Assembly: GCA_027031495.1 (NCBI GenBank)
Contig: JALVQA010000004.1
Coordinates: 56,070-120,069, forward strand
From: Candidatus Moraniibacteriota bacterium
GTDB taxonomy: Bacteria; Patescibacteriota; Minisyncoccia; Moranbacterales; GCA-2747515
Length of the DNA: 64,000 bases
Reading direction: 5' to 3'
In this document: in pieces, positions 9,641 to 12,716 of the stretch
Position numbering within the stretch: position 1 is the stretch's first letter
How the letters are laid out: every line of letters starts with the position of its first letter
Translations under genes and position numbers: made by a program
Notes under the pieces: model-generated
What the model saw: the letters and a program-made list of their open reading frames with translations, nothing else
The model's database searches: none
What the model was told of the DNA's origin: nothing

Positions 9641-9702
9641 AGTTTTGCTTCTTATATCATTATGTTCGTATCGTGCATCATCGCTTCGTCAAAGATATTG
9701 AA

Positions 9703-10019
9703 CGCAAAACACCTGCCATGCGGCAGGTGCGTGTATTCACATTCTGTGTGTAGAAAGGGATTTGAGCAAGTACGCAGTGTTAGGCCACCGCATACTGCGG
9801 ACCTTGCGAGCCAAAGACCGATATTTGCTGTGCGCACATTTCTGTGCAGACAGCAAACGAGGAGAGAGATTTTTCGGTCATTTGCACTATCATCAAGGTC
9901 CGTGCTCAGAACTGCGTGCCACAATACAAAAATTAATTGCACCGTTTGCAGCAGGACCCCCTTTCTACACGCAAAACACGAACACATCCACCAACTCTAC
10001 ATCAAGGAACACCACATCC
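9703..10019 (-). ncRNA. Candidate structured ncRNA (RNA-S, ~300 nt), family unknown
   Basis: Promoter TGGACA-17-TACACT (-10 at 10026-10031). A ~27-bp closing stem whose G.U wobbles work only on the minus strand, several nested stems, and terminator cacctgcc-gcat-ggcaggtg-tttt at ~9705-9729. Confidence 0.6.
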
Positions 10020-10169
10020 ACCAACAGTGTAGCATGTTTTACACACTCTGTCCAATTATTGCGTATAAGCCCATTAGGCTCCATGTATGAATATGTAATA
10101 CTAAATAAACAGAGTAGTTCTACAAGAAATATATGTATTGTTAAATTCCTTTGTACATAACTAATAACA

Positions 10170-10214
10170 AAAAAATTGGAAGGAGGGGTAGTGGTGTTAC
10201 ACCACCCCTCCGCC
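10170..10214 (-). terminator. Intrinsic terminator after the 141-aa ORF
   Basis: Minus strand ggaggggtggtg-taa-caccactacccctcc followed by a U-tract. Confidence 0.6.
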
Positions 10215-10219
10215 GAGAA

Positions 10220-10645
10220 TTAATTTTCTTCCTCTTGATCCCCTGGCACATGCCAGTAGATCTCAAGTCTGTCTTCCTCCTCCCCAAGACCACCTTCGCA
10301 GAGTCCTTCTACCCTTTTTGTCCTTAAGTAGATTTTACGACCTGTATTTTTCACCACAAAAACTCCTTCTTTGCAGTCATTTTGACTATAAGCTCTTGGT
10401 GGATATGTATCCACCTGCGCTCCATCTTCTTCTCTTATTATTACAATTGACGGATCCAGCCTATGATACCAGAAGTAATCTCCTGGCTCCAAAAAAAAGC
10501 TTCGGAGAGCATCTTTTTTTTCGTTTAGCCTCTTCCTGAGGCCTCTTTCGTATTCATGCTTCCATGCTATTATATTGTTTAACTCTCTGTTTCTAACAGA
10601 GAGTACAACAATAATAACAACAACAAGAAGAAGAATAATGCTCAT
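10220..10645 (-). CDS. Hypothetical protein with an N-terminal membrane anchor
   Basis: 141-aa ORF with strong RBS (AAGGAGGG), hydrophobic N-terminus and its own terminator. Confidence 0.7.
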   Translation of the reverse strand: MSIILLLVVVIIVVLSVRNRELNNIIAWKHEYERGLRKRLNEKKDALRSFFLEPGDYFWYHRLDPSIVIIREEDGAQVDTYPPRAYSQNDCKEGVFVVKNTGRKIYLRTKRVEGLCEGGLGEEEDRLEIYWHVPGDQEEEN

Positions 10646-10690
10646 TGTTTTCCCTCCTTAAGGGACTTGGCCACCAGATCGGTGGCGTTG

Positions 10691-11342
10691 AAAAAAAATG
10701 TCACTCGCTGTTACGAGCGACGCCATTACAAGAATTTACACACCATTCTTACAACAGCGTCGCTCACAAAAAAGTGCTGCATCTATATTGTACAGCGCCC
10801 TTTGTATAATTACCTACCTGCAGAAAGCATTTCTACAGGCCATGGGTGGTTAGACCATCACCTGCAGCAGAAACTTTCTGCAAGAAAGTTCTGGGCGTCG
10901 TCATGCCGTTCGTGCGGGTATCACGTTGGACCCACTCACACTACTAGGGCGCAGTGCGTGATATCACATTAGATATCATCTCTTTCACTCTTCGTTGAGA
11001 GACACCGCTCATGCGACTTTTTACATGTTCATAAAATGAATATTTTCCCGTGCGTTTCTCCTCTCTCTCCTCATTGTCTCTGCCTAAGAGACTGTGAGAA
11101 AGGCATAGAACGCACACATCTTATGACCATTGCTTCAACTAAGGTACTGCTCATGTAAAGAACATTCTGACTGTATTTGCAGTCAGTACGCTGCGCATAC
11201 TCTTGCGCAAATACTGACAACAAAAAGCAGTACATCTCTTGAGAGTATGTACTGCTGCATTCGTCAGTTGGCGGTAGTATATACTCTCTCCTCTGTCCGT
11301 AAGCATCGATTGCCTAAAATCGTTTGCGCTACGTCCGTGATG
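10691..11342 (-). ncRNA. Candidate large structured ncRNA or leader (RNA-L, ~570-650 nt)
   Basis: Promoter TTGACA-17-TATAGT at ~11376-11348. No credible ORF. Many hairpins; the 5' ACCATCAC pairs with GTGATGGT (10854-10861). Terminator-like hairpins at ~10768-10798 and 10691-10721. Confidence 0.55.
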
Positions 11343-11390
11343 GTGCAACTATAGCATATATAAAAAATATTGTCAAGTACTTACTCCTAC

Positions 11391-12470
11391 ATTCTCATCC
11401 CAATCTTAATTCCTCCACAAAAAAGACATCCCTTGATATAATTGCAGATCTCTATACCTAACAGTTAACCATGGACAGGGATATCTCACACACATATTAC
11501 ACCATCTCATCGTACAGTGATAGTAGCACTGTTGCGTGCCGGTGTTTCCCAAAAGGATATTGCCGCACAACTCGGCAAAACGCCGAGTGCCATCTCTCAA
11601 AAAAAGATTAAGCGCAACAATGATGCTGACGGTGTCTACAGAAAGCGTACCGCTCAGGAAAGAACGACACGTCGCAGAGTTACTGTCAATCAGCGCTTTC
11701 GTGAACTAGCTCATGATCCGTGGCTCCGTGCATATATGGAACGAAAGCTCAAGATGCGCTGGTCACCGGAGCAGATAAGTGGACGATTGCGACTGCAGTA
11801 TGGCAGTACTCTGGGAAAAGATAGTATATATGCTACGTCTACACTCACCACACGGACTTGGTACAATATCTGCGGTGCAAGAAAGGATCTTTTCGCAGGC
11901 GTTGCGGTACGCGCATCCGTGAAAAAGTGCGTGAACAAGCCAAAATCAGGCGCATTGACACGCAACCAACCATTGTTGAGGCCCGAGAGAGAATCGGTGG
12001 CTGTGAGGGTGATACAATCATTGGAAAATATATGACAAAGCGACTCGTCACAAATGTTGATCGCAAGAGCGGCTACGGCATGATTGATAAGTTGTCAGTT
12101 ATCACGAGAGAAACGATGTTTGCTACGCTGGAGAAGCGCTTTGGTACGGATTGCTAGAAAGAGAAAGTATACGTATACGTACAAAAACGGTGCGGAATTG
12201 GGCAAGGAAGATGCGTGGCTGGAAGAAAAAATCAAGATGGATATCTACAGAGCGTACCCCTACCACTCCTAGGAGCGTGTGTGTAACGAGCTTAGTACGG
12301 GAGTTCTTTCCAAAAGGTACAGACTTTGCTGGAATGTCGGAGAACGAGGTGCGGCGAATAGAGTGCCTGCTCAACAACCGACCTCGCAAGAGACTTGGTT
12401 ACAGAACACCACGGGAAGTCTTTTTTGAGAAAAAAATGTGCATTTTTTTGATTAAGATTTGGGAGAGAAT
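11391..12470 (+). mobile_element. Degraded IS30-family insertion sequence
   Basis: Frameshifted fragments with an HTH (SQKDIAAQLGKTPSAIS), WSPEQISGRL, EGDTIIG, AYPYHS and LNNRPRKRLGYRTP. Imperfect IRs attctcatcccaatcttaat (11391-11410) and attaagatttgggagagaat (12451-12470). Confidence 0.85.
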
Positions 12471-12716
12471 TTAAGAGTTTTGACAATCTCTCACAGTACA
12501 TGGATACTTATGTCAACTCCCAATTTGCCAGTGACACATGGGGCGAGGTTAACTATGTTGGCCAACACTTAAAGGAAAAGGCCTATATCCGGGAGTCCAT
12601 CAATGACTAGATCAAAGCACACGGCGGCAAGCACTATCTTCTCAAGGAATAGCACCATCAAAAAACATCGACATATAGGTGTTTTTTTGATGATGTAGCC
12701 TCCCGGAGGAAATGCC

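Follow-up and report, generated by a model that had tools for sequence, protein, structure and literature searches.

Natural antisense control of intrinsic terminators is known mainly from plasmid systems with opposite-strand antisense RNAs. Patescibacteria combine very small genomes with a large stock of orphan and defence-related genes. The antisense RNA of pT181 comes from the strand opposite its target, to which it is fully complementary. Its binding at the pT181 attenuator is described as starting with a kissing hairpin and as allowing a terminator to form that an antiterminator otherwise blocks (PMC3753616). The CI RNA of P4 is described as pairing with two sites in a leader, seqA and seqC, and causing premature termination (PMC4825925). 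In Proteobacterial phages, the P1/P7 c4 antisense RNA (RF01695) is reported to repress antirepressor synthesis, with c4-a1b1 as its bipartite target motif (PMC2864571, PMC8546580). Control of Rho-dependent termination by sRNAs has been reviewed, which does not make intrinsic cases unknown (PMC6582626), and the DUF1874 RNA motif is described as a structured element between consecutive accessory ORFs (PMC5737381). Here we describe two RNA elements, the leader of an accessory operon (RNA-L) and a small RNA (RNA-S), which are absent from Rfam 15 and are joined by an invariant ten-base complementarity that is conserved across Patescibacteria.

Both elements lie on the minus strand of the window, the 64,000-nucleotide stretch of DNA analysed, to which all coordinates refer (G-numbers denote compared genomes, G000 being the source genome, and C-numbers denote contigs). 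The arrangement observed is a promoter, a leader with a GA box, orphan ORFs and RNA-S at the end of the operon. The putative leader promoter is of the sigma70 type (11348..11376; TTGACA-17-TATAGT with an extended -10), matches the consensus at 11 of 12 positions and is kept in G002. It is followed by a first leader unit that we predict to be an attenuator (11222..11341), composed of a kissing hairpin whose UUAGGC loop (11312..11317) is complementary to a loop of RNA-S, a GA box, GAGGAGAGAG (11284..11293), as the predicted RNA-S binding site, an antiterminator strand (11276..11288) complementary at 12 of 13 positions to the 5' arm of the terminator (11241-11253), and a predicted intrinsic terminator with a hairpin and U5 (11222..11255), which a simple terminator scan had missed. 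The same layout is repeated at C13 and C21 of the source genome and in G002. A second module (11040..11122) holds another UUAGGC loop (11082-11087) and another GA box (11063-11072), with no terminator tied to it; this second copy can also pair locally within RNA-L.

Further downstream, the leader contains a conserved multi-stem core (10827..11015) that ends in a junction with a CUAACCAC loop (10846-10853). This core is 85% identical over 125 nt in G002, compared with 51% for the neighbouring protein, and an alignment of the window and G002 sequences over 10822-11122 shows compensatory changes at 11 of 71 predicted pairs. While its 3' hairpin recurs in other leaders, the core as a whole was found in only 1 of 29 other family genomes (G002), in none of 150 order genomes and not at other GA/CU loci. 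The 3' end of the leader carries terminator-like hairpins (10700..10796), including a terminator-like site at 10721-10700; at other loci a similar leader hairpin has no U run after it, so this one may not mark the end of a free RNA. The leader region as a whole (10690-11345) folds better than dinucleotide shuffles (z -9.2). The leader's own UCUAAC loop was considered as a partner for UUAGGC and rejected, as the pairing is weak (-1.7 kcal/mol). A broken insertion-sequence transposase, which we take to be IS30-like, occupies 11405-12474 and ends just upstream of the leader -35; its HTH matches fall below the cut-off, and ends similar to it were found in G026, G028 and G029.

The gene between the two RNAs is a 141-aa orphan ORF (10220-10645) with a strong RBS (10653-10659; 10220..10659 in all) and one N-terminal hydrophobic stretch, for which we found no Pfam, PHROG or sequence homologue, and Atlas matches were below 0.8. 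The sequence after the ORF holds a GC-rich hairpin (10182..10211) that is shortly followed by a U run and is a probable terminator. RNA-S itself (9705..10019) would be a structured small RNA of ~310 nt and is a predicted trans-acting repressor. It is preceded by a promoter-like site (10026..10054) that matches the consensus at 9 of 12 positions and has the TG; just upstream of this site, a second GCCTAA lies in a small hairpin (10074-10079). RNA-S ends in a terminator-like hairpin (9705..9730; terminator-like site 9730-9709), and a near-identical terminator hairpin follows the RNA-S homologue of G411. Promoter-like and terminator-like sites thus flank both RNAs, as originally predicted, except that RNA-L has an internal predicted terminator as well (11255-11222). 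Within RNA-S, a predicted 15-nt bulge holds the CU box, AAAUCUCUCUCCUC (9859..9872), which includes UCUCUCUCCUC at 9859-9869 and whose 10-nt core is the element conserved throughout the phylum. A second docking site, GCCUAA (9780..9785), is a free loop only in the genus; it had been placed in an internal loop and is a 6-nt hairpin loop in the predicted fold, while the CU sequence is bulged as proposed. Both sites are predicted to be unpaired (P 0.94-1.0), and the RNA-S region (9695-10020) folds better than dinucleotide shuffles (z -7.6). All six motifs of the original prediction are where it put them and exactly complementary, which is far beyond chance, the likelihood of a 310-nt stretch holding both complements being ~5e-6 from genome-wide word frequencies.

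The suspicion that these RNAs belong to no described family held up against Rfam 15 and the literature covered. Neither region matched Rfam 15 at the gathering score or beyond noise at E <=10, none of 16 homologous loci matched at the rod, and no match to the window RNAs was found among the large ornate RNAs and self-splicing introns of Rfam 15. RNase P RNA and tmRNA were ruled out, both being located elsewhere in the genome, and 6S RNA had no match anywhere in the genome at E <=1. A group II intron, suggested by a GUGYG start and a kissing pair, had no model match and was dropped. No description of the GA/CU pair was found in the open-access literature searched.

The locus is flanked by a lamin-tail/PKD-type gene (a label from our reading of the sequence) and yebC. 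As these two genes adjoin each other in G001 and G003 and no motif except isolated hexamers was found upstream of yebC at 27 family loci, the element is an insertion. BLAST against 60 relatives recovered the leader core in G002 and RNA-S in G001. The G002 leader has retained its promoter, terminator, first GA box and two UUAGGC loops, while its second GA box is degenerate (locus L027 is near-identical to the G002 locus and was counted once with it), and no RNA-S was found in this genome, which is 89% complete and whose contig ends near the leader. The G001 RNA-S keeps the CU bulge and the GCCUAA loop, and its stems have changed.

The locus had been pictured as one RNA pair around one gene. Instead, we identified two further leaders with promoter, UUAGGC hairpin, GA box and terminator on contigs C13 and C21 of the source genome, making four GA plus UUAGGC modules at three loci, and found RNA-S in single copy. 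By chance the genome should contain 0.013 instances of TTAGGC with the GA 10-mer no more than 60 nt after it; it contains 4. The C13 and C21 leaders head arrays of short accessory ORFs with shared hairpin elements between the ORFs; the array genes include a STIV B116-like gene (PF08960, which we take to be the AcrIII-1 ring-nuclease family) and a weak DHH match. Given several leaders that head ORF arrays and one RNA-S, RNA-L is more plausibly an operon leader than a free RNA. A possible degenerate leader is present on C3. Further accessory arrays with shared inter-ORF hairpins lie at C3:8984-10700 and C14:8900-10300, the GA box of the C3 leader being degenerate, and in G001 a small structured unit with its own terminator (C116; L037 1340-1470), which had no Rfam match at the gathering score, stands upstream of an array promoter.

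In exact-pattern searches, the CU 14-mer AAATCTCTCTCCTC was matched 13 times among 319 order genomes, 12 of which held a match, compared with 3 control matches. Among 401 phylum genomes it was matched 23 times, in 20 of them, again with 3 control matches, and 12 of the phylum matches outside the source genome are intergenic rods. For the CU plus GCCUAA pattern, 401 class genomes yielded 9 matches spread over 8 genomes (control, 3), and two of these matches, G411 and G685, are true homologues. Altogether, 15 genomes of the phylum hold RNA-S-like rods, at 17 loci, with CUCUCUCCUC mostly unpaired. Among the intergenic candidates, 17 of 18 fold at z -2.8 to -15.7, and G304 (z +0.3) was dropped as an RNA-S; the exception to the unpaired CU box is G685 (P 0.2). 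Two of the 19 other (control) CU matches also fold strongly, L176 in G1064 (z -7.1) and L109 in G188 (z -4.5), and may be further family members. In three congeneric rods, 10 of 42 pairs show compensatory changes, around a CU box that does not vary and is unpaired. Two rods have a consensus promoter of their own. In G685 the rod is the last element of its operon and lies directly 3' of a type III hammerhead core, which scores below the gathering cut-off (E 0.004) and would release the rod. The genus-specific patterns recovered one relative each in the collection scans, covariance models built from two sequences reached the genus only, and the UUAGGC-GA module pattern was at background outside the genus among 319 order genomes (15 matches, with ~40 in the control). 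Matches to viral sequences were chance-like or inside ORFs, apart from one intergenic match (L119), and were set aside.

Several features near individual rods are recorded here as observations. G685 has two near-identical type III hammerhead cores in its accessory operon (L164 8436-8480 and 9633-9675). G895 has three CU rods, one of which (L181/L198; G895 C1:536090) also carries a UUUUAGGC hairpin loop. L107 (G101) and L114 (G304), each with a CU box, have almost the same 17-nt word around GCCUAA and lie beside what reads as a tmRNA-like 3' end and tRNA genes; G304 is unstructured on the CU strand. In G411, bAvd and a reverse transcriptase resembling a diversity-generating retroelement lie 3 kb from the RNA-S homologue (L163 341-2113), and the ORF after the rod encodes a cyclic-phosphate-processing receiver domain (L163 5047-5403).

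The rods and the GA box are found together well beyond the genus. Of 14 loci outside the source genome that have upstream DNA, 7 carry GAGGAGAGAG on the same strand no more than 3.5 kb upstream, a denominator that keeps G304 and leaves out G781, G101 and G001, which start at contig ends; the three control directions gave 1, 1 and 0 of 14. G707 and G734 are of one genus, so the seven loci represent six lineages. At each of them the GA box lies in a promoter-led leader before orphan ORFs, and G748 and G685 have two GA boxes each, as in the window. Further support is provided by the reverse search for a promoter with a GA box, which used no CU information and gave matches in 9 of 191 genomes (control, 0): the source genome, G748, G868, G771, four cases in which the box is a ribosome-binding site and one match inside an ORF. 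In G868 and G771, which are of one family, the leader has a terminator and a single orphan ORF, with a CU rod 960 and 1154 nt downstream. The genes at the orphan-ORF position differ between loci and include a gene of the STIV B116-like ring-nuclease family and a DHH-like gene. G1039 has two intergenic GA boxes on a contig other than that of its rod. For the rods of G001, G101, G411, G712 and G979, no target leader was found by exact-match searches of these fragmented genomes, and a UUAGGC-GA target was not found in five rod-bearing genomes. At three distant loci a divergent TrmB-type HTH gene precedes the GA leader (L103 1532-2335, L164 11383-12150 and L197 7853-8611), possibly a protein regulator of these promoters.

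Docking by a kissing loop plus a helix had been proposed. The GA-box helix is supported by conservation and by co-location across the phylum, while the kiss is conserved only within the genus: UUAGGC/GCCUAA was not found in 7 other systems, and GCCUAA lies in a predicted stem in G101, G411 and G685. Homologues show intramolecular compensatory pairs, as described above. For the intermolecular pairing, the boxes are invariant among exact-pattern matches and covariation in the flanks is not significant (p 0.12 and 0.16), so that covariation does not prove it.

We next consider how the GA box might act on the leader. When the nascent RNA is folded as far as the apex of the terminator, the GA box of the four genus leaders is predicted to pair with the terminator's 5' arm, and in all 8 terminator-bearing leaders examined it pairs with the 5' half of the terminator (mean P 0.48-0.90). 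For the genus leaders, the antiterminator helix was matched by 3, 0, 3 and 150 of 2000 shuffled arms, and a helix of the same strength was found 3, 0, 3 and 15 times among 194 other terminator-like arms, a set that may include the leaders' own hairpins. The leaders of G748, G772, G868 and G771 have the antiterminator geometry with P 0.90, 0.84, 0.81 and 0.50, and 0, 1, 134 and 104 of 1000 shuffled arms, respectively, did as well. The antiterminator is thus clear against shuffles in 5 of 8 leaders and weak in 3, and non-cognate arms cross-pair nearly as strongly as cognate ones. In the genus leaders the predicted duplex of RNA-S with the GA box (-19.3 to -23.0 kcal/mol) is more stable than the antiterminator (-13.7 to -18.9 kcal/mol). 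Since the complete leader is predicted to fold into the terminator with or without RNA-S, the decision must be kinetic, made during transcription. Roughly half of the GA boxes are embedded in long stems and have no clear terminator, namely those of G895, G707, G734, G1025 and G685 and the second boxes of G748 and the window.

Taken together, we lean towards trans-acting attenuation, in which RNA-S would bind the GA box of nascent leaders, free the terminator and silence accessory operons under negative feedback. According to the folding predictions, without RNA-S the emerging GA box would pair with the 5' half of the terminator and allow read-through. When RNA-S is present, its CUCUCUCCUC, predicted to be unpaired, would bind the complementary GAGGAGAGAG box in the promoter-proximal nascent leader, a binding that in the genus is probably nucleated by the UUAGGC/GCCUAA kiss. 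This duplex, predicted to be more stable than the antiterminator helix, would free the terminator hairpin, so that transcription would stop before the genes, and one RNA-S may silence several dispersed operons. As RNA-S is frequently the last element of the very operon that it would control, the circuit would be one of negative feedback. More speculatively, a shortage of RNA-S, as might follow the entry of the DNA into a new cell, would turn the genes on. A trans-acting regulator was the best of the roles originally suggested for RNA-S, although not one dedicated to the 141-aa gene, as the genes at this position vary and there are several leaders.

RNA-S might instead act after transcription, its CU box covering a purine-rich RBS or leader stems and altering translation or processing, either in trans or in cis by joining both ends of one transcript. 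We regard this as unlikely, though it is the strongest of the alternatives. The GA box is indeed the ribosome-binding site just before an ATG in 4 of the 9 promoter-GA matches, the invariance of the box fits a ribosome-binding constraint, and the position of RNA-S at the end of the same operon and the GA boxes that lack a terminator are also accommodated; yet no ORF begins for hundreds of bases after the GA boxes of the window, C13 and C21, the four ribosome-binding cases have no exact CU box downstream in the DNA examined, pairing in cis is impossible for leaders on other contigs, and the 16S tail is the standard CACCUCCUUU rather than the CU box. We hold it quite improbable that RNA-L and RNA-S form a stable two-RNA complex, scaffold or split ribozyme, as the original prediction had allowed. 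The strong conservation of the leader core in G002 and the two docking sites per module with kissing loops would fit such a complex, but the core was found whole in only that one other genome, whereas the GA/CU pair extends throughout the phylum, and all that the other leaders have in common is the box and the terminator; moreover, no Rfam ribozyme matched. Less probable again is activation, with RNA-S opening GA-box stems and helping to build a BoxA-linked processive antitermination complex that passes the array hairpins. A BoxA-like ACUCUUUAACAA follows the leaders of C13, C21, G001 and G002, the arrays are full of terminator-like hairpins, and the GA boxes that have no terminator are sequestered within stems. 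The geometry of the first GA box, however, predicts more termination in 8 of 8 leaders, and the window leader has no intact BoxA.

The two remaining alternatives concern the DNA and the protein. Orphan ORFs are enclosed by the boxes as inverted repeats, the locus is an insertion whose site is empty in G001 and G003, and the DUF1874 motif has been likened to attC sites (PMC5737381), all of which would suit boxes that act as DNA, bracketing a mobile or shufflable gene cassette, with the RNA fold as a by-product. Lone leaders and lone rods exist, however, promoters and terminators lie outside the boxes, the terminator and hammerhead context is strand-specific, and no recombinase gene lies between or beside the boxes at the co-located loci inspected, which makes this reading very improbable. 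Lowest of all we place the suggestion of a dedicated type I toxin-antitoxin pair, in which the 141-aa ORF would encode a toxic membrane protein under repression by RNA-S. A type I system has one conserved small hydrophobic toxin, usually under 60 aa, that is dedicated to its antitoxin RNA. The hydrophobic N-terminus, the long structured leader and the adjacent small RNA recall such a pair, but the ORF has no homologue, unrelated genes occupy its position elsewhere and each genome offers several targets.

Returning to attenuation, a wider version is possible but doubtful: a protein-free regulon across the phylum, in which one small RNA family with an invariant ten-letter key would silence, by attenuation in trans, many dispersed integron-like arrays of foreign and anti-defence genes, with added kissing loops as lineage-specific address codes. 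RNA made from the ends of arrays, in one case through a hammerhead ribozyme, would then serve as a feedback or immunity signal. The proposal is of a concrete RNA-only circuit, whose small RNA family and leader targets are conserved across many Patescibacteria families; it can be tested without culturing the organism and would supply compact parts for synthetic transcription control.

Comparison with the described systems places RNA-S close to three of them. It resembles P4 CI in being a structured RNA that comes from the locus it would control and would pair with short sites in an untranslated leader, premature termination being the predicted outcome. Unlike P4 CI, with which it has no sequence or Rfam match, it is not cut from the leader and has its own promoter-like site here, release by a hammerhead being predicted in G685 only; the ORF and RNA-S follow the two target boxes, whereas P4 CI has targets on both sides, the targets of RNA-S are dispersed in the chromosome, and the terminator is a predicted intrinsic one. 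As with c4, a predicted trans-acting antisense RNA faces a bipartite, separately conserved target motif. Two single-stranded sites against a bipartite target, the trait of RF01695, are predicted in the genus, the second site not being found in the 7 other systems. RNA-S is longer than c4 and heterogeneous outside one 10-nt box, and the RF01695 covariance model gave no match in the window at E <=10 nor at the 16 homologous loci. With pT181 the leader shares a mutually exclusive antiterminator and intrinsic terminator (8 leaders by folding, clear in 5). In contrast to the pT181 RNA, RNA-S is encoded on the same strand, 1.2-1.4 kb away, pairs over 10-13 nt plus a 6-nt loop in the genus, and has several predicted targets. 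A different kind of likeness is to the DUF1874 arrays: at C13 the leader stands at the head of an array that includes a DUF1874/STIV B116-like gene, and similar DNA follows the G002 leader (72% over 113 nt). The GA leader and RNA-S are nevertheless elements other than the DUF1874 motif, and the C13 locus has no Rfam match at the gathering score. On this reading, RNA-S would work like P4 CI, c4 and pT181 and is a member of none, since it matches no model, is not encoded opposite its target, and has targets that are all upstream and dispersed. If true, a same-strand, short-seed, multi-target version with feedback would extend the antisense-attenuation class.
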